Part shown: one piece after another, positions 1 through 9,674 of the stretch
How positions within the stretch are numbered: the first letter of the stretch is position 1
Layout of the letters: every line of letters begins with the position of its first letter
IMG/VR virus record: IMGVR_UViG_2548876938_000003
Span: 1 to 9,674 of that record
Length of the DNA: 9,674 nt
From: a virus
Taxonomy: Duplodnaviria; Heunggongvirae; Uroviricota; Caudoviricetes
Strand: one strand, 5' to 3'
Program-made: the position numbers and the translations under genes
Notes under the pieces: model-generated
Told to the model about the DNA's origin: nothing
Seen by the model: only the letters and a program-made list of their open reading frames with translations
Databases searched by the model: none

Positions 1-287
1 CTGATGACATACATGCCGTAAATCATGCCGGTGCCATCCAGCAACGGCCACGCCCGGCCTTCATCTGCCATCAGCCTGAGCGTGGTCATCGTCAGCTTTC
101 CGCCGGTCAGTTCGGGATAAAGCACACCGGCAAGCGTCATGTTTTCCTCGCCAACACCGAGAAACTGGTAGGCATCCCGTTTACCGATACGGGAATTTGA
201 CGGCCAGCGATAATCTGATTCACGCTGCATGGTCTGGTGTGGCAGCGTCTGGCGCATAAAAACAAACATACCTAACGCGAGCATCAT
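1..287 (-). CDS. U: Tail protein gpU (P2 U-like), first 95 codons; 3' end lies beyond the window start
   Basis: Minus-strand tandem ATG ATG at 287-282, preceded by a strong SD (AAGGAGGTGA) that overlaps the gpT stop codon. Translation reads MMLALGMFVFMRQTLPHQTMQRESDYRWPSNSRIGK... for the ~25 codons translated by hand, matching my recollection of P2 gpU; the remainder to the window edge is assumed open. Absent from the ORF track because there is no in-window stop. Confidence 0.85.
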   Translation of the reverse strand, partial: MMLALGMFVFMRQTLPHQTMQRESDYRWPSNSRIGKRDAYQFLGVGEENMTLAGVLYPELTGGKLTMTTLRLMADEGRAWPLLDGTGMIYGMYVI

Positions 288-301
288 TTTTAGTCACCTC
301 C

Positions 302-2749
302 TTAACCGTCATGCATCATGCTGGCACGGGCGCGCGCACGTTTATCCCGCTCGTATTTTTCGAGCGCATCCTGTAACTGGCGGTCGAGCTGTGTCCCCGG
401 CGCAGTACCACCCGTCAGGCTGATGTGATATTCGTTTTTACTCTGGTCTACATAAGAGCGGCCAGCAGGTGCAGTGACCGGCTGATAAGCCTGATAACCT
501 GCATAAGAGCTGGTCGCCGGAATATAACCACCGCTGCCATACGTGGCGGCTTGAGTTCTGGCGGCGGTCTGGTCAAGTGTGTCTGACTCTTTGTTGATAA
601 CACCGAGTTTTTCCAGTACCCAGTCAATACCACTGCGCAGTTTGTTGAACGCATTAAGCGGCAGCATCAGCGCGTCAGCCAGTGCCTGCCCGAACATGAC
701 GCCCGTGTCACGGCAACGGTTCAGGGTGTCCTGGGTGGCTTTGACCGGGGCAATCAGGTTTTTAAACCACTGCCACGCGGCCTGTAACTTTTCGCCCAGC
801 CAGTCAAACACCGGCTTCAGTGGCGTGAACAGTTCCCCCACCGGCGCAAATGCCGCTTTCAGCCCTTCAACCACACCGCCAAAGAATGCGCTGACAGGCT
901 CCCAGTATTTACGGATAAGCAACGCCCCGGCGACAATGGCGGCCACCACGGCCACAACCGGCCAGCTAATCGCCCCGATGGCCGTCATAACAGCACTGCT
1001 AACCGTCGTGAAGATTGCCCCCATTGCGCCTGCTGCCGCGATAATGGCATTGATGCCGGTGATAACCGGCCAGGCTACAAGACCAATGGCACCGATGATG
1101 CCAATAAGCGCCAGCGCGCCACCGACAATGAGGCCGATGGTTGACGCCAGTGATTTGTTTTTCTGGATCCAGCCGTCGAGTTTTAACACATACTTTGTGG
1201 CCGTCTGCGTGAGCTTACGCAGTGCGCCTTCCTGCTGGTCAAACAGGTCAGTCCCCACCGCCTCATAAGCGGACTGAAACTCCTTAAAGTCACCGCCGAG
1301 GTTATCCTGCATGATTTTAACCAGCTCTTCCGTTTTACCGTCCGAGGCTTTCAGCGTGGCGGTCAGCGTATCCAGTTTTCCGCTTGCTGCCGCTGCCAGT
1401 AAAACGTTCGCTGATTTCAGGGCTTCCTCACCAAAAATGGTTTTAAGGTATTCCCCCTTCTGAGACGTTCCCAGCTTATGCTTATCAAAGCTGGCCTGAA
1501 TCTCTTTCAGAATGGTGAACAACGGACGCATATTTCCCTTTTTGTCCGAGGTTTTAACGCCAAGCTCTTTGAGTGCATCCCATGCTTTTCCAGTCGGTGC
1601 CTGTAATCGGGTGACAACGGCACTGCTACCCGTACCCGCCATTGACCCCCTGATGTTATTGTCATGCAGCACACCGGTCATGGCCGCTGCCTGCTCAAGA
1701 CTTACACCTGCCGTCCTCGCAACCGGGCCGAGGTAAGTCAGTGCATCACTGAGTCCCTGAAAATCAGCCGCCGACTTATTCATCGTTGCCGACAACACGT
1801 CGCCCACATGGCTGACATCATCATTTGACAGTTGAAAGGATGCCTTAGTCCCCAGCAACAATTGCGCGTTTTCTTCCATCGACCGCTGGTTTGCCAGTGC
1901 CATATTCAGTGTGACCGGCGTTGCTGCCTGAATAGCCGCAGCATCTCCACCCGCTTTCGCAATGATAATCTGTGCACCGGCTGCATCATCTGCCGAGGCT
2001 GCGGTATTGTCGCCGAGCTGGCGCGCCTGCTTGCGGAGTGCGGTCATTTCGGCGGAGTCTTTTGCCACTCCTAGCACGGCCTGCAATTCTGAGTTTTTCT
2101 GCGCAAACTCATAACCGGGCATCAGCAGCTTAACACCGGCCATCGTTCCCGCAGCAGCAATCCCCACACCGGCAGCGCCCACTGAGGCCATATTTCCTGC
2201 CAGTTCCTTTCCGGCCTGATAACGCTGTTTTACTGCGTTAAGTTTTGCCTGTTGTGCACTGACACGCGCCAGTGCGTCGCGCTGACGGTTAAGCTGTGCG
2301 GTGGTTTCACTGATACGGTTTTTCAGCCCCTGCTCATCATGTGCAAGATTGCGGGTATTAATTCCCACAGCGGCCAGTTCCCGCTGCTGGCGTTTAACGG
2401 AATCCGTCAGGCGGTTATATTTCGCCTGTAAGTCCTCCGCCGCACGCTTTGCGGATTCCAGCACTTTCGCCTGAGCACGGGTCGGACGTTCGGTGTTTTT
2501 AAACTGTGTGGCAAGGGCTTCGGCTTCCTGCCGAGCCTTTTCAAGTGCATGACCAGTCACGGCGAGCTGTGCACTGGTCTTGCGAAATCCCTCAATACGG
2601 GATGCCTGACCGTTCAGCTCGCGCAGTGATTTTTGTGTTTCCCGGATATCCCCCGACAGCGACTTACTCGCTGTGCGGATGGATTTAAACGGGCGGGATG
2701 CCTGGTCAACAGCCCTGAGCAATACCTGTAATTTTACATTGTTACTCAT
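302..2749 (-). CDS. T: Tail tape measure protein gpT (815 aa)
   Basis: Complete 815-aa ORF. The N-terminal half is rich in A/Q/R/L/E (coiled-coil character). A long central Gly/Ala/Ile-rich hydrophobic block (LASTIGLIVGGALALIGIIGAIGLVAWPVITGINAIIAAAGAMGAIF...) is typical of tape measure proteins. It lies immediately downstream of the E/E' frameshift chaperone pair; the ATG at 2749-2747 sits 3 nt downstream of the E' stop (2742-2744 lies inside T codons 2-3). Length equals the P2 gpT length I recall. Confidence 0.93.
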   Translation of the reverse strand: MSNNVKLQVLLRAVDQASRPFKSIRTASKSLSGDIRETQKSLRELNGQASRIEGFRKTSAQLAVTGHALEKARQEAEALATQFKNTERPTRAQAKVLESAKRAAEDLQAKYNRLTDSVKRQQRELAAVGINTRNLAHDEQGLKNRISETTAQLNRQRDALARVSAQQAKLNAVKQRYQAGKELAGNMASVGAAGVGIAAAGTMAGVKLLMPGYEFAQKNSELQAVLGVAKDSAEMTALRKQARQLGDNTAASADDAAGAQIIIAKAGGDAAAIQAATPVTLNMALANQRSMEENAQLLLGTKASFQLSNDDVSHVGDVLSATMNKSAADFQGLSDALTYLGPVARTAGVSLEQAAAMTGVLHDNNIRGSMAGTGSSAVVTRLQAPTGKAWDALKELGVKTSDKKGNMRPLFTILKEIQASFDKHKLGTSQKGEYLKTIFGEEALKSANVLLAAAASGKLDTLTATLKASDGKTEELVKIMQDNLGGDFKEFQSAYEAVGTDLFDQQEGALRKLTQTATKYVLKLDGWIQKNKSLASTIGLIVGGALALIGIIGAIGLVAWPVITGINAIIAAAGAMGAIFTTVSSAVMTAIGAISWPVVAVVAAIVAGALLIRKYWEPVSAFFGGVVEGLKAAFAPVGELFTPLKPVFDWLGEKLQAAWQWFKNLIAPVKATQDTLNRCRDTGVMFGQALADALMLPLNAFNKLRSGIDWVLEKLGVINKESDTLDQTAARTQAATYGSGGYIPATSSYAGYQAYQPVTAPAGRSYVDQSKNEYHISLTGGTAPGTQLDRQLQDALEKYERDKRARARASMMHDG

Positions 2750-3169
2750 TCGTGTTTCCGCTTCGCCGGAGCGCCTTTTCGCGCCATGTGATGAGTTCGG
2801 TCAGGCTCATGGGATACAGTTCTGATGGCGGCCAGTGAAATATCACTGCCACATCCGCCATCAGGTCATCGACCGAGAGATTTTTCGGGAACGTCACTGC
2901 ACCGAGTTCGGCGACAAAAAACCGACCACCTTACCGGCCAGCGCCACAAGGTCAGGCAGTTCCAGCGCGGCGACTTCCTGCTCGGTCAGCATCGGTGCCG
3001 TCATGCGCGGCAGCACTTTAATCAGTGCATCGACTTCGGAGTTTGCAACCGCAGCCAGACTGACACCGCGCAGCGTCCCGGCGTTAGGTTTCATCAGCGT
3101 GACCTGTTCGATAACCTGCTCACCACGTTTGACCGGATTGTCCAGGGTAATGACATTTTCTTTGTTCAT
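2742..3169 (-). CDS. E+E': Tail assembly chaperone gpE+E' (142 aa), made by programmed -1 ribosomal frameshift at 2915-2921
   Basis: Hand translation of the -1 frame after the slippery site gives VAELGAVTFPKNLSVDDLMADVAVIFHWPPSELYPMSLTELITWREKALRRSGNTNE, then TAA at 2744-2742, which overlaps T codons 2-3 (ATGAGTAAC). 85 + 57 = 142 aa, the length I recall for P2 E+E'. Confidence 0.8.
2894..3169 (-). CDS. E: Tail assembly chaperone gpE (91 aa, zero-frame product)
   Basis: ORF MNKENVITLDNPVKRGEQVIEQ...KVVGFLSPNSVQ, ATG at 3169-3167, TGA at 2896-2894. Position between tail tube and tape measure genes. Contains the slippery heptamer 7 codons before its stop. Confidence 0.9.
   Translation of the reverse strand: MNKENVITLDNPVKRGEQVIEQVTLMKPNAGTLRGVSLAAVANSEVDALIKVLPRMTAPMLTEQEVAALELPDLVALAGKVVGFLSPNSVQ
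2915..2921 (-). promoter_or_regulatory. -1 programmed frameshift slippery heptamer T_TTT_TTG (mRNA sense)
   Basis: Plus strand reads caaaaaa at 2915-2921; the reverse complement is TTTTTTG in X_XXY_YYZ register with the E frame (GGT TTT TTG). This is the conserved tail-chaperone frameshift of P2-like and lambda-like (G/GT) phages. Confidence 0.8.
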
Positions 3170-3197
3170 GGTTTTCTCACTTCTGAATCGGGGTTAA

Positions 3198-3218
3198 CCG
3201 GTCAGCCTGGCTGACCGG
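3198..3218 (-). other. Perfect 9-bp GC-rich stem-loop (ccggtcagc-ctg-gctgaccgg) in the FII-E spacer
   Basis: Inverted repeat read directly from the sequence, 8 nt downstream of the FII stop and about 28 nt upstream of the E start codon. No U-tract follows on the transcribed strand, so it is not a canonical intrinsic terminator. Confidence 0.5.
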
Positions 3219-3225
3219 ATGAAAA

Positions 3226-3744
3226 TCACAGGCCGATATTGCGGCGGTGTTGCTCCAGCCGGTCGACGCCGTTCACCTTCTCAATCATGTTGATGGTGTC
3301 GATTTCGACCAGCTCCTTACCGTCCATCGTCAGCCGGAAATAGGTGCAGACCACGGAGATTTTCGACTCGGTGTCTTCTCCCTGTTTCCCCTCGCCGGTG
3401 TCGATTTCTTTCTGACGTCCACGCATGACCACCTCGACGGCCACCGTTTCGCCGGTATCGTCGCGCTGGTAAGAGCCTGCAAAACGAATCGGCACGGCAT
3501 CCACACCGGTTGCGGCGTAAAGCTCCCAGATAACCGAATCCGGGAAGCCCCCGAGCGACCACTCCATTGACAGCGCATCGTCATCAAGGCCGAGGTCTAC
3601 CGGTGCGCTGCCGTTCATCCCCGCACCGCGATAGTTTTCGAGCTTACGGGTCAGTTTTGGCAGCGTGACGGACTTTGCAACGCCCTGATAGCTGTAGCCG
3701 TTCAGAAAGACGTTCATTAACTTGAGTTTGCGCGGCATTGCCAT
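3226..3744 (-). CDS. FII: Tail tube protein gpFII (172 aa)
   Basis: Complete ORF MAMPRKLKLMNVFLNGYSYQGVAKSV...; ATG at 3744-3742 preceded by SD AAGGAG, which overlaps the FI stop. Length and sequence match the P2 tail tube protein as I recall it. Confidence 0.93.
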   Translation of the reverse strand: MAMPRKLKLMNVFLNGYSYQGVAKSVTLPKLTRKLENYRGAGMNGSAPVDLGLDDDALSMEWSLGGFPDSVIWELYAATGVDAVPIRFAGSYQRDDTGETVAVEVVMRGRQKEIDTGEGKQGEDTESKISVVCTYFRLTMDGKELVEIDTINMIEKVNGVDRLEQHRRNIGL

Positions 3745-3756
3745 CGGTCAGGCTCC

Positions 3757-4566
3757 TTAATTGCTGTTAACCGAAGTGACCAGATTTGCCAGGTATTTAT
3801 CGGTAATACGCTGGCGCAGGGTCAGGTTTTCGAGAGGAGGCACCGGGGTATAGTCGTAGTCGATATACAGTTTTCCGGCCTTGAGGGTTTCCGCATCGTT
3901 GGATTCTTCGCTGAACCAGCAGGTCGCATCCACGATATAGCCGTTTGTTTTCAGCTCACGGAATTTGGCATTGATGCCGTCAACGATGTCGCGAATCAGC
4001 GTTGCGGTGATGGGCTTGTCCACTGCCCACATGTGCGCCTCAGCCATCGTGTCGGCCAGCACCTGCGCGGTGCGGGTGTAGTTTTCAAAGAGGAACAGCG
4101 GGTCATCGGAGCAGGTACGGTTACCCCAGAAGCGGAAACCGTCGCGGCGAATCAGCGTAGTGACGCCTGACTCGTTAAGCAGGTCAGCATCGGTGCCGGA
4201 CTCCTGCAAATCCCAGAAGACGGATGCGCTGATGCCGGTAACACCGTTCACCCCGACATTGGACAGCGTTTTATGCCAGCCCTGCTCCTGGTCGATTTTA
4301 GCGCGCAGACCCAGCGCACGGGCGGTGGCATACGCGGTGGCGGTGGTACTGGTGACCGTATCCCATGCGAGGAAATCCGGCCAGATGACCATCAGCTCAC
4401 GCTGGCTGAAATTCTGACGGTAGGCTTTCACCTCGGAAATGGTTTTACAGCCCCATGCGCTGATATACCCGAAAGCACGCAGCTTCTGACAGACTGATGC
4501 CAGTGCAACAGCCACCTCTTTGGTATCCAGTCCCGGCACGCCGAGAATACGCGGTTTAACACCGGT
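3757..4566 (-). pseudogene. FI: Tail sheath protein gpFI, 5'-truncated remnant (C-terminal ~269 codons only)
   Basis: Sheath-like sequence starts abruptly at ...[26 protein letters not shown]... and runs to ...[12 protein letters not shown] with TAA at 3759-3757. The ORF-track start at 4614 is a GTG, and its first 15 residues ([15 protein letters not shown]) are the gpV coding sequence read out of frame. P2 sheath is about 396 aa as I recall, so roughly 125-130 N-terminal codons are missing. Confidence 0.85.
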
Positions 4567-4834
4567 TATCGCCGGAATAAATCCCCGGCAGAACGAACGC
4601 CGTGTCGAGTTCACCGCCCACGGCCAGAATCAGCACCTGTTCCCCCACGGAAGGTGCCCACCATGTGCGCGAACGTCCGGCGCGATGGGTCAGCCACTGA
4701 AGCCAGTCGGTGCACATGCCGCCGGTCTGCACACGGCAGCGACCGGCGTTAAGGTCGGTTTCGACGATAATGCCGGTGCGGATCATGTTGCGCAGTGCGC
4801 GCGCGAGTTCCTGAATATTTGCGAGAGTGTTCAT
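4556..4834 (-). pseudogene. V: Baseplate spike/assembly protein gpV, N-terminal 89 codons followed by an out-of-frame RC-stop
   Basis: [90 protein letters not shown] matches the gpV N-terminus. The frame then reads R-C-stop (TAA at 4558-4556), which lies inside the sheath-derived sequence. Full-length gpV is about 211 aa as I recall. Confidence 0.85.
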
Positions 4835-4845
4835 AACGGGAAGGA

Positions 4846-4869
4846 TGCCGCCGGGTCATACCGGCGGCA
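4846..4869 (-). other. 9-bp stem / 6-nt loop hairpin (tgccgccgg-gtcata-ccggcggca) between the S stop and V start
   Basis: Inverted repeat read directly from the sequence, 12 nt upstream of the V ATG (4834). Not followed by a U-run. Sits where the late promoter PV and V translation-initiation signals are expected. Confidence 0.4.
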
Positions 4870-4900
4870 ATGTGACGATGAGGTGTCGGGAATGGCACAA

Positions 4901-5323
4901 CTAACGGTCGAGGTGAGCCAGGATAATCTCTTCAATCATCTGCACATCCTCACCGGTAAAGCCGAGCAGAGGACGCGCCGGATAATCAATTTTCTTACCG
5001 TCTTTCCGGTTTTCTTCCGACAGACCGAACTGATGCACACTGGCGATTTTCGGCGACTTCCCGCCGTAAAATTCCATTGATGCCTGCTCCGGGCTGGCGC
5101 GGATATGCAAAAAACGACTGGTAATAAGTTTCGCAAACATTTTTCGCTTAACGCGACCGGTCTTTTTTCTGGCGCTCTGCTGCTGGCGTGGTGCGTAGGG
5201 TGTGCCGTCCGGGGCTTTCTGTGCCATCACCCGGCGCTGCTGACTCTGCCGCAGACGTTTCGCCAGTTCGGCGCTCAGTCGCCGACGCCCTGACGGTGAC
5301 AGCGATTCAATAAGTCCGGCCAG
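4901..5323 (-). pseudogene. S: gpS-like tail completion / virion morphogenesis protein, 5'-truncated and lacking its native start
   Basis: The frame reads ...RLAGLIESLSPSGRRRLSAELAKRLRQSQQRRVMAQKAPDGTPYAPRQQQSARKKTGRVKRKMFAKLITSRFLHIRASPEQASMEFYGGKSPKIASVHQFGLSEENRKDGKKIDYPARPLLGFTGEDVQMIEEIILAHLDR with stop at 4903-4901. Assignment is from motif memory (HQFGL, YPARPLLGF) and position immediately before V. Protein-like sequence in this frame continues upstream into the 3' end of the M ORF. The only in-frame starts are GTG at 5230-5228 and ATG at 5227-5225 (the ORF-track 109-aa call); there is a stop at 5371-5369. Confidence 0.6.
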
Positions 5324-5913
5324 TCGAGCTGTGTCGCACGTTGCAGGTGAGCCAGCGCACCGGCGGCATCACCAGCGTCACGCAGAAACAGACCGGTGAT
5401 TTTGTGCAGCTTTGCGCGCACTTCATCAGGCATGTCTGCCGTGGCGGTCAGTGCAAGGGTCTCCGTCAGCAGGCGGGTATCCACAGACTCACCGGCAGCG
5501 TGGGCGCGCATGGCCGCGAGCGCCACCTCCTCGGTGAACATGTACGGCGGGGTGCGGCGGTGTTTACCCGGCATGGTCAGACCGTACTTCAGGGCATAAC
5601 GGGCAATCTCCAGCGCACCGGCAATATCGCCGGTATCCAGACGCCACAGCATGACCGTCATCAGAATGTCATCCTGTGCACCTTTGCCCTGCTCCAGCAC
5701 GCCGTTCACCCACGGCAACCAGAACGGCAGCAGTTCGCGTTTTTTCGCGGCCTTCAGCTCTTTTGAATAAATCGCTTTCAGTGTGCGCTGGTCTGCGGCC
5801 AGCTTGACCAGCATCTGCTCATAGACAGTTGCATGTCGCAGCGGGGCGGCGTCCCGCTGCGCGGTCATCGCTGCCGAGACCCGCATCATGTGGCGCTGTG
5901 CGGGACTCGTCAT
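5275..5913 (-). CDS. M: Terminase small (endonuclease) subunit gpM, apparently 3'-truncated (212 codons; aberrant C-terminus WPDLLNRCHRQGVGD)
   Basis: MTSPAQRHMMRVSAAMTAQRDAAPLRHATVYEQ... with ATG at 5913-5911, 3 nt downstream of the N stop, and SD GGGAG. After ...HLQRATQLD the frame reads through sequence that is coherent in the S frame, and stops at 5277-5275. P2 gpM is about 247 aa as I recall. Confidence 0.8.
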   Translation of the reverse strand: MTSPAQRHMMRVSAAMTAQRDAAPLRHATVYEQMLVKLAADQRTLKAIYSKELKAAKKRELLPFWLPWVNGVLEQGKGAQDDILMTVMLWRLDTGDIAGALEIARYALKYGLTMPGKHRRTPPYMFTEEVALAAMRAHAAGESVDTRLLTETLALTATADMPDEVRAKLHKITGLFLRDAGDAAGALAHLQRATQLDWPDLLNRCHRQGVGD

Positions 5914-5916
5914 CGG

Positions 5917-6990
5917 TTACGCTCCCGGCTCTGCGGTCACTTTAGTCGGTGTGGAGAAGTCACCGACCTTAATTTTTTCCACCAGGCAACCGGCGGCGTA
6001 GTCTTCCACCACGTAATCAATGTTCATTGACTCGTAGTTCTCCACGCGGTCGAGTTTCGGGTTTTCCTCAATCACGCGGCGATGGCTGTCATCCATGTAG
6101 TAGATGGACAGGTTTTCCAGCTTCGTGATGAGCATCGCATCCGCCGGGAAGTACGGGACGCGTACCGCTGGCAGGTTGCCGATGCGTTTCTGGCTGATGA
6201 TGACGTCAGCGGCCAGCATTTCGCTGTTGTCCTGCTCCTTGTTGACGATGGGGAAATACTTGTCCGCCAGTAGCTGACGCCCCACAATCACCACAAGGTC
6301 AGGGTCTTCCTGATACCACGGCTCAATCAGGTTGTTGGTCGCATCCATCACCAGTGCGTCAAGGCTGGCATAATCACCGCCCTTACCCACGCGGATGACC
6401 TCAGAGGTCGTGTGCCCTTCCTCGTCAGTGACCTTGCTCATCACGCGCGCCGGGGCTTCATTGCGGTATTTCTGCAGCCAGCCGACCGCCACATCCTGCA
6501 ACATCGGATTACTGCTGCGGTCAGAGGTTTCGGCACGCCTCACGCCGTTAAAACCGGCCATGATGAAATCAAGGGACTGGCGTTTGATAATGGCGTTACG
6601 GACACGGAGCTGGAAATCCTGATAACGCGCCCACAGGTCCAGCGTTTTGTAGCGGATATAAAAATCGAAGTTAATCTGGTCGCATTCGTACTTGTTTGAC
6701 GCCAGCTTCGAGAAGTCCTTTGGCTGACGCTCGGTGCCACCGGCGGTGTCGGTGGTGCTGGCGATGGAGCCGGTGACACCGATGCCAATTTTTTCCCCTT
6801 TCATTTCGCTGACCGGCACAATGTTGATGCGGGTCAGAAAGTCAGAGGACTCCTGCATGGTGTTCATCAGGGTCTGGGTGACCGACGGTTCAACGGTGAA
6901 TTTTTTCGACACATCACCGGCGTCGATGCCGTTCAGTTCGGCAACACGGGACAGGTAGGCATTAAATTTAAAGCGGGTTTCCTGGCGCAT
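5917..6990 (-). CDS. N: Major capsid protein precursor gpN (357 aa)
   Basis: Complete ORF MRQETRFKFNAYLSRVAELNGIDAGDVSKKFTVEPSV... preceded by AGGA SD; TAA at 5919-5917. Canonical position between scaffold O and terminase subunit M. Length equals P2 gpN as recalled. Confidence 0.93.
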   Translation of the reverse strand: MRQETRFKFNAYLSRVAELNGIDAGDVSKKFTVEPSVTQTLMNTMQESSDFLTRINIVPVSEMKGEKIGIGVTGSIASTTDTAGGTERQPKDFSKLASNKYECDQINFDFYIRYKTLDLWARYQDFQLRVRNAIIKRQSLDFIMAGFNGVRRAETSDRSSNPMLQDVAVGWLQKYRNEAPARVMSKVTDEEGHTTSEVIRVGKGGDYASLDALVMDATNNLIEPWYQEDPDLVVIVGRQLLADKYFPIVNKEQDNSEMLAADVIISQKRIGNLPAVRVPYFPADAMLITKLENLSIYYMDDSHRRVIEENPKLDRVENYESMNIDYVVEDYAAGCLVEKIKVGDFSTPTKVTAEPGA

Positions 6991-7048
6991 AGTTTTTCCT
7001 GAAATTAAGGGTTAATCGTGAAGGTTTTCCCGGACTGACTGACGCCGG

Positions 7049-7903
7049 TCAGCAGTTCGTCATCAGGGCGTCACCGCCACCGCCGGTGGCTTTGCTGCGG
7101 CGCTGCTGGGTCAGACTTTCGGTGTGGTCGAGACTGTTTTTCAGGCGGGTGAATGCCTGACTGGTTTCATCCGCCCTGTCAGTCACATCCTGCTTAAGTG
7201 CCGAAAAGGCGGTTTCCATCTCAGCAAGGCGCTGCTCAGTGGCGCTCAGTTTTTCCTGCACATGCTCAGCGACAGCGGTCACCGCTTCATGCACGTCATT
7301 CAGACGGGCGTCATCGCTGGCCTGTTTGCGGCCAAAAATGGATTTCACCTTTTCGGTCAGGGCGGTGAACACGGTTTCAGGCAGGTCTTCAAATTCCAGC
7401 TCAACAGGCGTTGCCACTGAAATCAGGTTTTCAGGGCTTAATTTGAAGCGGTTCAGAGGGTTGTGTTTTGCCGTGCGGCAGAATTCCAGGTATTCCGTGC
7501 CGAGGCTTGCCGGGTCATCGGTGACGGCCAGCCCCACCAGATAACACTTGCCGGTGTTGGCAAAGTTCGGCTGAATTTCCATTGAGGTATAGACCTTCTG
7601 CGCGGCCTTGTTCATCGCGATAAGGTCATCGGTCGGGGTGATTTTCGCAAACAGCGCCCATTTGCCTTTCAGCGCCGAATCGTCGTCAATCTTTTCGGCC
7701 TTCAGTTCGGCCACATCGCCATAACGTTTAAAAATACCGTCAGGCAGGATGCCGCGCAGATGTTCCAGGTTAATGCGGCAACCATAGACACGCGGGTCAA
7801 AGGTTTCGGCCATTTCCTGAATATCCTGCGCACTGATGACACGCCCGTCACAGGTGTCACCCTCAACGCCGATACGAAAGAATTTTGAGACTTTTTTTGC
7901 CAT
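7049..7903 (-). CDS. O: Capsid scaffolding protein gpO (284 aa)
   Basis: MAKKVSKFFRIGVEGDTCDGRVISAQDIQEMAETFDPRVYG... with coiled-coil-like C-terminal half. True start taken as the ATG at 7903-7901 (SD AGGA 6 nt upstream), not the ORF-track upstream ATG at 7969. Divergent from P, as in P2. Confidence 0.9.
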   Translation of the reverse strand: MAKKVSKFFRIGVEGDTCDGRVISAQDIQEMAETFDPRVYGCRINLEHLRGILPDGIFKRYGDVAELKAEKIDDDSALKGKWALFAKITPTDDLIAMNKAAQKVYTSMEIQPNFANTGKCYLVGLAVTDDPASLGTEYLEFCRTAKHNPLNRFKLSPENLISVATPVELEFEDLPETVFTALTEKVKSIFGRKQASDDARLNDVHEAVTAVAEHVQEKLSATEQRLAEMETAFSALKQDVTDRADETSQAFTRLKNSLDHTESLTQQRRSKATGGGGDALMTNC

Positions 7904-8076
7904 TGTCAGGAGTCCTGAATAGTGATTAGAGGAGTCACATGTCGGCATCAGTTTCCCGACGATGCGCATCCTCCGCCATCAGTCCCGGATGGCTTATCAC
8001 TGACACAACAGCACCTTAGCGAATCGCGGGGCGCGACTCAGTAGCCTTGCCGTGTATTCATCACGGCGAGGTATTC
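7904..8076. promoter_or_regulatory. Divergent intergenic region between O and P; presumed late promoters PO and PP plus 5' leaders
   Basis: 173-bp non-coding spacer between divergently oriented first genes of two late operons. Contains the near-palindrome tcagga-g-tcctga (7906-7918) overlapping the O SD, and a GAGG SD for P at 8067-8070. I could not find an exact TGT-N12-ACA Ogr/Delta-type activator motif, so promoter placement is inferred from gene arrangement only. Confidence 0.45.
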
Positions 8077-9674
8077 ATGACCATCACCACAGACACCACT
8101 CTTTTACACGACCCGCGTCGTCAGGCGGCGCTGCTGTACTGGCAGGGATTTTCCGTGCCGCAGATTGCCGCCATGTTGCAGATGAAACGCCCGACGGTGC
8201 AGAGCTGGAAACAGCGCGACGGCTGGGACAGCGTTGCCCCCATCAGCCGTGTCGAAATGAGTCTGGAAGCGCGGCTGACCCAGCTCATCATCAAACCGCA
8301 GAAAACCGGCGGTGACTTCAAGGAAATTGACCTGCTCGGACGCCAGATTGAACGACTGGCACGGGTCAACCGTTACAGTCAGACCGGCAACGAGGCAGAC
8401 CTTAATCCGAACGTCGCTAACCGCAACAAAGGCGGGCGTCGCAAACCGAAAAAGAATTTTTTCAGTGACGGGGCCATCGAAAAGCTGGAGCAGATTTTCT
8501 TTGAGCAGTCTTTCGAGTATCAGTTGCACTGGTATCGCGCCGGGCTTGAGCACCGCATCCGCGATATCCTGAAATCCCGCCAGATTGGCGCGACGTTTTA
8601 TTTTTCCCGCGAGGCGCTGCTGCGCGCCCTGAAAACCGGTCATAACCAGATTTTTCTGTCGGCCAGTAAAACGCAGGCGTATGTGTTCCGCGAATACATC
8701 ATCGCCTTTGCCCGGCTGGTTGACGTTGACCTGACCGGTGACCCGATTGTCCTGGGCAATAACGGCGCAAAACTGATTTTTCTCGGCACCAACTCCAACA
8801 CCGCGCAGAGCCATAACGGCGACCTGTACGTCGATGAGATTTTCTGGATCCCGAATTTTCAGGTACTGCGTAAGGTGGCATCAGGTATGGCCTCACAGAG
8901 TCACCTGCGATCGACCTATTTCTCCACTCCGTCCACGCTGGCGCACGACGCCTACCCGTTCTGGTCGGGTGAACTGTTCAACCGGGGACGCGCCAGCGCC
9001 GCCGAACGCGTGGAAATCGACGTCAGTCATAACGCCCTTGCCGGTGGGCTTCTCTGTGCAGACGGCCAGTGGCGGCAGATTGTCACCATTGAGGACGCCC
9101 TGAAAGGTGGCTGCACGCTGTTCGACATTGAACAGCTCAAACGCGAAAACAGCGCCGACGATTTTAAAAACCTGTTCATGTGTGAATTTGTTGACGACAA
9201 GGCGTCAGTGTTCCCGTTCGAGGAGCTGCAACGCTGCATGGTCGACACGCTGGAAGAATGGGAAGACTATGCACCCTTTGCCGCCAATCCGTTCGGCTCA
9301 CGTCCGGTATGGATTGGTTACGACCCGTCACACCGTGGCGACAGCGCCGGATGCGTGGTGCTGGCACCGCCGGTGGTGGCCGGTGGCAAATTCAGAATAC
9401 TTGAGCGTCACCAGTGGAAAGGCATGGACTTTGCCACTCAGGCTGAATCCATCCGCAAACTCACCGAAAAATATAACGTCGAATACATCGGTATTGATGC
9501 CACCGGCCTCGGTGTCGGCGTGTTCCAGCTCGTGCGCTCGTTCTATCCCGCCGCGCGCGACATCCGCTACACGCCGGAAATGAAAACCGCAATGGTGCTC
9601 AAGGCAAAAGACGTTATCCGCCGTGGCTGTCTGGAATATGACGTCAGCGCCACCGACATCACCAGCTCGTTTAT
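8077..9674 (+). CDS. P: Terminase large (ATPase/nuclease) subunit gpP, first 532 codons; 3' end beyond the window
   Basis: ATG at 8077 with GAGG SD; hand translation MTITTDTTLLHDPRRQAALLYWQGFSVPQIAAMLQMKRPTVQSWKQRDGW... is open to the window end. Walker-B-like LYVDEIFWIP and a nuclease-domain-like VWIGYDPSHRGDSAGCVVLA are present. Absent from the ORF track because there is no in-window stop. Confidence 0.93.
   Translation, partial: MTITTDTTLLHDPRRQAALLYWQGFSVPQIAAMLQMKRPTVQSWKQRDGWDSVAPISRVEMSLEARLTQLIIKPQKTGGDFKEIDLLGRQIERLARVNRYSQTGNEADLNPNVANRNKGGRRKPKKNFFSDGAIEKLEQIFFEQSFEYQLHWYRAGLEHRIRDILKSRQIGATFYFSREALLRALKTGHNQIFLSASKTQAYVFREYIIAFARLVDVDLTGDPIVLGNNGAKLIFLGTNSNTAQSHNGDLYVDEIFWIPNFQVLRKVASGMASQSHLRSTYFSTPSTLAHDAYPFWSGELFNRGRASAAERVEIDVSHNALAGGLLCADGQWRQIVTIEDALKGGCTLFDIEQLKRENSADDFKNLFMCEFVDDKASVFPFEELQRCMVDTLEEWEDYAPFAANPFGSRPVWIGYDPSHRGDSAGCVVLAPPVVAGGKFRILERHQWKGMDFATQAESIRKLTEKYNVEYIGIDATGLGVGVFQLVRSFYPAARDIRYTPEMKTAMVLKAKDVIRRGCLEYDVSATDITSSF

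Follow-up and report, generated by a model that had tools for sequence, protein, structure and literature searches.

A P2-like prophage remnant very probably shaped by two internal deletions, one of which joins terminase gene M to tail gene S

The stretch of DNA analysed here (the window) is the complete 9,674-bp contig AIAO01000078.1 of assembly GCA_000446325.2. By blastn, its reverse complement runs collinear with phage P2 (AF063097) except at exactly two breaks, both of which are clean deletions; the four aligned segments span the whole window at 93.9–98.2% identity, and the genes and junctions that they contain are listed in Table 1. Pfam searches of the window ORFs returned Phage_term_smal, Phage_tail_S, Phage_base_V, Phage_sheath_1/1C, Phage_cap_P2 and Phage_GPO. 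The window is matched at 95–99% by 96 phage records, mostly P2-like phages of Escherichia, Yersinia and Salmonella, and related prophages are present in approximately 1,800 complete genomes of E. coli. On this evidence the window belongs to a P2-like (Peduovirus) prophage whose host is an Escherichia-type enterobacterium. Rfam gave no match to an RNA family in the window. Long antisense 'shadow' ORFs occur opposite the phage genes (8104-8814 on the minus strand and many plus-strand ORFs in 300-7500, among them one of 236 aa facing P and one of 229 aa facing T) and are by-products of GC-rich coding DNA, not genes.

Table 1. Positions of genes, junctions and aligned segments in the window, with the corresponding P2 nucleotides.
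Feature	Position in window	Strand	P2 position	Description
P', large terminase gene	8077..9674	+		532 open codons, runs off contig end
O, capsid scaffold gene	7049..7903	-		intact, 284 aa as called
N, major capsid gene	5917..6990	-		intact, 357 aa
M', truncated small terminase gene	5275..5913	-		212 aa; 197 native codons (of 247) + 15 aberrant
S', tail-completion / virion-morphogenesis gene	4901..5320	-		codons 1-10 or 1-11 and start codon gone
S-V intergenic region	4835..4900	-		66 bp; identical to intact CFS3246 prophage
V', baseplate spike gene	4556..4834	-	10308-10578	cut after ~90 codons
FI', tail sheath gene	3757..4562	-		~125 N-terminal codons gone
FII	3226-3744	-		open, full length
E	2894-3169	-		open, full length
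E'	2742-2897	-		open, full length; slip site GGTTTTTTG conserved
T	302-2749	-		open, full length
U'	1-287	-		open, cut by contig end
Junction 2	5321..5323	-		CTG microhomology; crossover of 3,198-bp deletion
Junction 1	4563..4568 (blastn blocks overlap to 4571)	-	10578 (V) to 18028 (FI)	TAACCG microhomology
Segment: P', O, N, M to codon 197/198	9674-5321		1396-5749	blastn
Segment: S from codon ~10	5326-4899		8942-9369	blastn
Segment: V, first 271 nt	4834-4564		10308-10578	blastn
Segment: FI 3' part, FII, E/E', T, U'	4571-1		18028-22598	blastn
S-side deletion endpoint, window	5318-5326			
S-side deletion endpoint, L002 (IAL7250)	contig 8376-8380			
S-side deletion endpoint, L058	contig 1309-1314			
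S-side deletion endpoint, L169	contig 923-926			

Junction 2 joins P2 nt 5749 (M codon 197/198) to P2 nt 8945-8947 (S codon 11). In the alignment to P2, M homology stops at window 5321 (P2 5749) and S homology runs from window 5326 (P2 8942), as an earlier interpretation of the window from its letters and ORFs (the sequence-only reading) had predicted. The trinucleotide CTG is present at both parental sites, in M at P2 5747-5749 (...GACTG/T, the slash marking the break) and in S at P2 8945-8947 in codon 11 (...GGCTG/G); at base level the M sequence reads ...CAGCTCGACTG/TCAGG, the parental S allele ...GACCGGCTG/GCCGGACTTATT and the window ...CAGCTCGACTGGCCGGACTTATT. Homology around the crossover extends to 5/6 matches in CGrCTG. 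The missing segment amounts to 3,198 bp alike against P2, against the intact CFS3246 prophage and against contig L030, the closest intact relative of the window (98.7–99.0% identical in whole-segment blastn). According to the P2 annotation it comprises the last 50 codons of M, the genes L, X, Y, K, lysA, lysB, lysC and R, and codons 1-10 of S; the sequence-only reading had put the loss at about 3 kb and had named L, X, Y, K, lysA/lysB and R, to which lysC and the ends of M and S are now added. Gene L serves head completion, Y encodes the holin and K the endolysin. The flanks of the junction are 97–99% identical to P2-like phages across kilobases, so chance is not a concern here.

Two bases just past junction 2 differ from P2 (GCC and CTT). 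Their interpretation as repair scars was rejected, as the same S allele, with the normal start MNEFKRFEDRLAGL, occurs in intact S genes of several IMG/VR and metagenome contigs; the parental allele CGGCTGGCCGGACTTATT is intact in IMG/VR contigs L006-L009, and for this reason no junction-associated mutations are needed. Compared with P2, CFS3246 and the intact S allele, a single copy of the short repeat is left and no bases are inserted at either junction, which is the signature of a microhomology deletion.

The join is out of frame; M' therefore gains 15 nonsense residues and a stop, and S' is left without a start codon. M' ends ...HLQRATQLD followed by WPDLLNRCHRQGVGD (15 aa) and the stop at 5277-5275, exactly as read earlier. 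Its residues 1-197 equal P2 gpM save for a few substitutions, and the complete PF05944 domain is kept (E=3.4e-48, profile 1-130/130); M' might retain some activity. M' is not a full-length gpM (approximately 245–249 aa with a basic C-terminal tail): P2 gpM has 247 aa, and the M homologues in the same 90% protein cluster have 245–249 aa (those cut at contig ends left out). The gpM tail that is lost here (P2 residues 198-247) is rich in Lys, Pro and Arg and includes a KRGRPKKK stretch resembling an AT-hook. The S frame is open from 5323 down to the S stop at 4901 and reads LAGLIESLSPSGRRRLSAELAKRLRQSQQRR...; its product matches Pfam PF05069 (Phage_tail_S; E=3e-42, profile 13-147/148) and lacks the N-terminal ~10 residues (MNEFKRFEDR). 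An S-like frame without its own start over these nucleotides had been proposed before and is borne out: upstream in the frame lies a stop, after which no ATG, GTG or TTG is found until the GTG at 5230 (native V42). The distance from the M' stop (5275) to the V start (4834), previously given as about 440 bp, is 441 bp.

A lineage that naturally carries a short M and an internally starting S would require no deletion at all. Nothing speaks for this beyond the ORF calls, and it can hardly be credited: relatives at 98–99% identity have a 744-nt M and a 453-nt S with the full L-R block between them, uncut members of the M cluster have 245–249 aa, and the S allele of the window occurs with a normal start. 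Both circumstances under which the sequence-only reading would have been wrong on this point thus fail, since M of 245–249 aa and S of 150 aa are usual in close relatives, and the RLAGLIES allele is also found in intact S genes beginning MNEFKRFEDRLAGL.

The junction could also have been produced by the assembler, through chimeric joining of reads that stem from a single P2-like prophage or from two. The contig is indeed short and belongs to a draft assembly, and its ends fall within phage genes, as though it had been broken at repeats. However, Logan contig SRR21142975_280 (4,845 bp), from the Logan assembly of a different run (SRR21142975), is 100% identical to window 4189-9033 and crosses both junctions, and assembler mis-joins arise at long repeats, not at microhomologies of 3–6 nt. 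Mis-assembly at 3–6 nt homologies in two assemblers is implausible, and an artefact is considered very improbable overall. Junction 2 is rare: it was found in 0 of 5,426 complete E. coli genomes, it was absent from the scanned GTDB representative genomes, and in S-anchored scans a window-type junction was found in none of the 116 IMG/VR and 56 metagenome contigs carrying that part of S. The exact M' protein is on record solely from the AIAO01000078.1 contig and the Logan contig.

The other junction mentioned in the sequence-only reading is real as well and joins V to FI at window 4563-4571. The deletion at this junction 1 measures 5,158 bp against CFS3246 and 7,457 bp against P2, and removes the 3' end of V, the genes W, J, I, H and G, the pF promoter and the 5' end of FI. 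P2 orf30 is absent from the S-V spacer of the window; as the spacer is identical in the intact CFS3246 prophage, this absence is, on the alignment, a natural polymorphism and not a deletion scar or third lesion. In IMG/VR contig L058, V is broken 16 nt upstream of junction 1 (P2 10562 vs 10578), and the V junction of that contig holds a 117-nt fragment resembling the C-terminal HTH of a DNA invertase. A V-side deletion hot spot was considered and found unconvincing, with just two events 16 nt apart (P2 10562 and 10578) among 197 contexts.

Both assemblies break within conserved phage genes, the window at 1 (U) and 9674 (P) and the Logan contig (L004) at 4189 and 9033, a pattern that points to another P2-like element in the genome with the broken sequences in common; such an element, if present, could carry the missing lysis and tail genes. 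With the contig ending in P and U, the rest of the prophage, and any complementing second P2-like prophage, lies outside the window.

Taken together, the window is very probably a P2-like prophage remnant with two internal deletions that arose by illegitimate recombination at short homologies, as indicated by the single copy of a short repeat at the junction, the absence of filler bases and the kilobase scale of the loss. At junction 2, a single event would have linked M codon 197/198 with S codon 11 through the common CTG, cutting out 3,198 bp with the C-terminal tail of M, L, X, Y, K, lysA, lysB, lysC, R and the start of S. The enzymatic route may have been slippage during replication, RecA-independent end joining at the microhomology, or gyrase. 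The window holds no full late-gene set (L, X, Y, K, lysA/B/C, R, W, J, I, H and G), and nothing in the contig corresponds to P2 5750-8944 or 10579-18027; this makes the window a defective remnant rather than a functional phage. Judged by gene content, heads, baseplate, sheath, fibres and cell lysis would all be beyond the reach of the element after both deletions. It would be a dead remnant from which no particle, tailocin or lysis is expected, as sheath, baseplate, fibres, head completion, R, S and lysis genes are missing or truncated.

The age of the lesions was assessed from pN/pS against intact relatives, which is 0.00–0.15 in O, N, M', S', FII, E and T; for V' it is 0.34 against L030, on four differences. 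Because the differences are almost all synonymous, the disabled M' and S' included, the divergence would predate the loss of function, and the simplest reading is that nearly all of it built up in a phage whose genes were still working, the deletions themselves being recent. The same data bear on the proposal that the element is domesticated, by which capsid, terminase, tube and tape-measure genes would be retained by the host for some function, and selection against killing would have eliminated the lysis cassette. Full-length open frames are present for P', O, N, FII, E, E', T and U', divergence is strongly biased to synonymous sites, and every recurrent deletion takes lysis genes. Recent deletions that came after the divergence would, however, leave a synonymous bias as well, and M' and S', although disabled, show it to the same degree. 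Neither a particle nor a tailocin can be formed, with sheath, baseplate, fibres, head completion and R absent or cut short. The junction is found in two contigs only (each listed for two samples) and in 0/5,426 complete E. coli genomes, whereas a domesticated locus should be widely conserved. Domestication is thus regarded as unlikely. The earlier description of the element as 'decaying or domesticated' holds in its first half and finds no support in its second, as the divergence from intact phages is almost purely synonymous and the lesion looks recent.

Decay by two deletions leaves room for a contribution of the local sequence at the S side. Four deleted remnants (the window, the E. coli IAL7250 remnant, L058 and metagenome contig L169) end at P2 8945-8948, within ~3 nt of the endpoint of the window, and their left ends lie in M for the window (P2 5749), in the M-L spacer for IAL7250 and L058 (P2 5949) and in holin Y for L169 (P2 6931). 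IAL7250 has an intact M, and its junction links the M-L spacer to S at TGA (P2 8946-8948); in L169, holin Y is joined to S at T/GACCGG. The IAL7250 remnant, which adjoins ogrK/trhP, resembles the window in being P2-derived, in carrying internal deletions with short junction homologies, in having lost L through R and in the break of S at codon 11; it differs in its left breakpoint (P2 5949 in the M-L spacer, not M codon 197) and in its other, second deletions, is ~2% divergent, has a full-length M, and its junction gives S' an in-frame GTG. L058 has the same 5949-to-S junction as IAL7250, yet differs from it by 2.0% in sequence, with pN/pS at 0.04–0.17 and SNPs that lie -4, +48, +99, -111 and -114 nt away from the junction. 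On account of these three observations, the identical junction was probably not inherited from one ancient deletion and looks like recurrence.

On these grounds the S-side breakpoint may be a sequence-directed deletion hot spot, at which a replication-stalling or break-prone site at S codon 11 (CT/GACCGG) repeatedly seeds leftward deletions of the lysis region; this would refine rather than replace the explanation by two short-homology deletions, and is a tentative possibility. It is favoured by the shared endpoint at P2 8945-8948 despite different left ends, by the divergence between L058 and IAL7250, by remnant backgrounds that are no closer mutually than to intact phages, and by the scan anchored 50 nt downstream in S, in which no other junctions were seen within the 110-nt view of ~170 S-bearing contigs. 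For 2–3 further events to fall within ~5 nt of the first, given a view of 110 nt, the probability is roughly 1e-4 to 2e-3. The events number only 3–4, however, and an IAL-type junction could derive from an L169-type one via 5-nt GGTGA homology, which lessens their independence; other deletions in the data set end elsewhere (P2 4218, 7257, 7485 and 8763), and no nuclease, gyrase or Chi motif was found at the site, with 0 Chi sites in the window. Partial matches to the S site in complete E. coli genomes are mostly mosaic S alleles. The endpoint sits in the loop of the palindrome CCGG-CTGA-CCGG (CCGGCTGACCGG), between two GACCGG repeats; in the allele of the window the palindrome is CCGGC-TG-GCCGG. 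This hairpin is weak (-5.0 kcal/mol), 6% of positions carry an inverted repeat of at least 4 bp, and the hairpin was rejected as the cause of the endpoint, its stability being unremarkable (just within the top 10% of P2 31-mers). That S codon 11 (P2 nt 8945-8948) is a nucleotide-precise recurrent endpoint of lysis-stripping deletions in P2-like prophages is conceivable but doubtful. As the breakpoint recurs in other remnants, junction 2 may not be a purely random microhomology event.

Further candidate causes were considered for the S site. Its minus strand (window 5310-5319; P2 8946-8955) reads AGTCCGGTCA and agrees at 9/10 positions with the nick region of the P2 ori, AGTCCTGTCA. A pseudo-origin for the HUH-nuclease gpA was rejected, the nick equivalent lying at ~P2 8957/8958, 10–12 nt off the junction and inside retained DNA; the likeness is probably coincidental. 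Long-range inverted homology between the M-L spacer and S was rejected as well, as matches of 8–9 nt are not significant (of random P2 windows, 32% match the S window over at least 8 nt and 12% over at least 9 nt). For a Hin/Cin-type quasi-site, compared by eye, the left half-site likeness fails to put the crossover at the nucleotides where it is observed.

By itself the finding is of little consequence; it traces, base by base, the disabling of one P2-like prophage, and the contig is best annotated as a defective remnant in which M', S', V' and FI' are pseudogenes. If the S-side hot spot were true, inactivation of the P2 family in Escherichia would be channelled by a specific site of breakage or fork stalling, or by a nuclease or recombinase not yet recognised. 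Were a large census to confirm the hot spot, it would be a tractable case in which prophages decay non-randomly and lethal lysis modules are purged.

With P2 and other Peduovirus prophages (the CFS3246 prophage; IMG/VR UViG_2547132418_000010) the window has in common the gene order P/O N M...S V...FI FII E E' T U (the slash standing for the change of strand), 94–99% nucleotide identity, the Pfam families and the E/E' slip site. It differs from them by the lack of 3,198 bp from the M 3' end to S codon 10 and of 5.2–7.5 kb from the V 3' end to the FI 5' end, and it lacks the P2 orf30 insert, as do many P2 relatives. With prophage decay through short-homology illegitimate recombination in enterobacteria it shares kilobase-scale deletions bounded by direct repeats of 3–6 nt, out-of-frame fusions and preferential loss of lethal lysis functions. 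The element is of a known kind, a defective P2-like prophage remnant whose particular junction is new but ordinary, and compared with short-homology prophage decay in general it differs in nothing but the apparently recurrent S-side endpoint.
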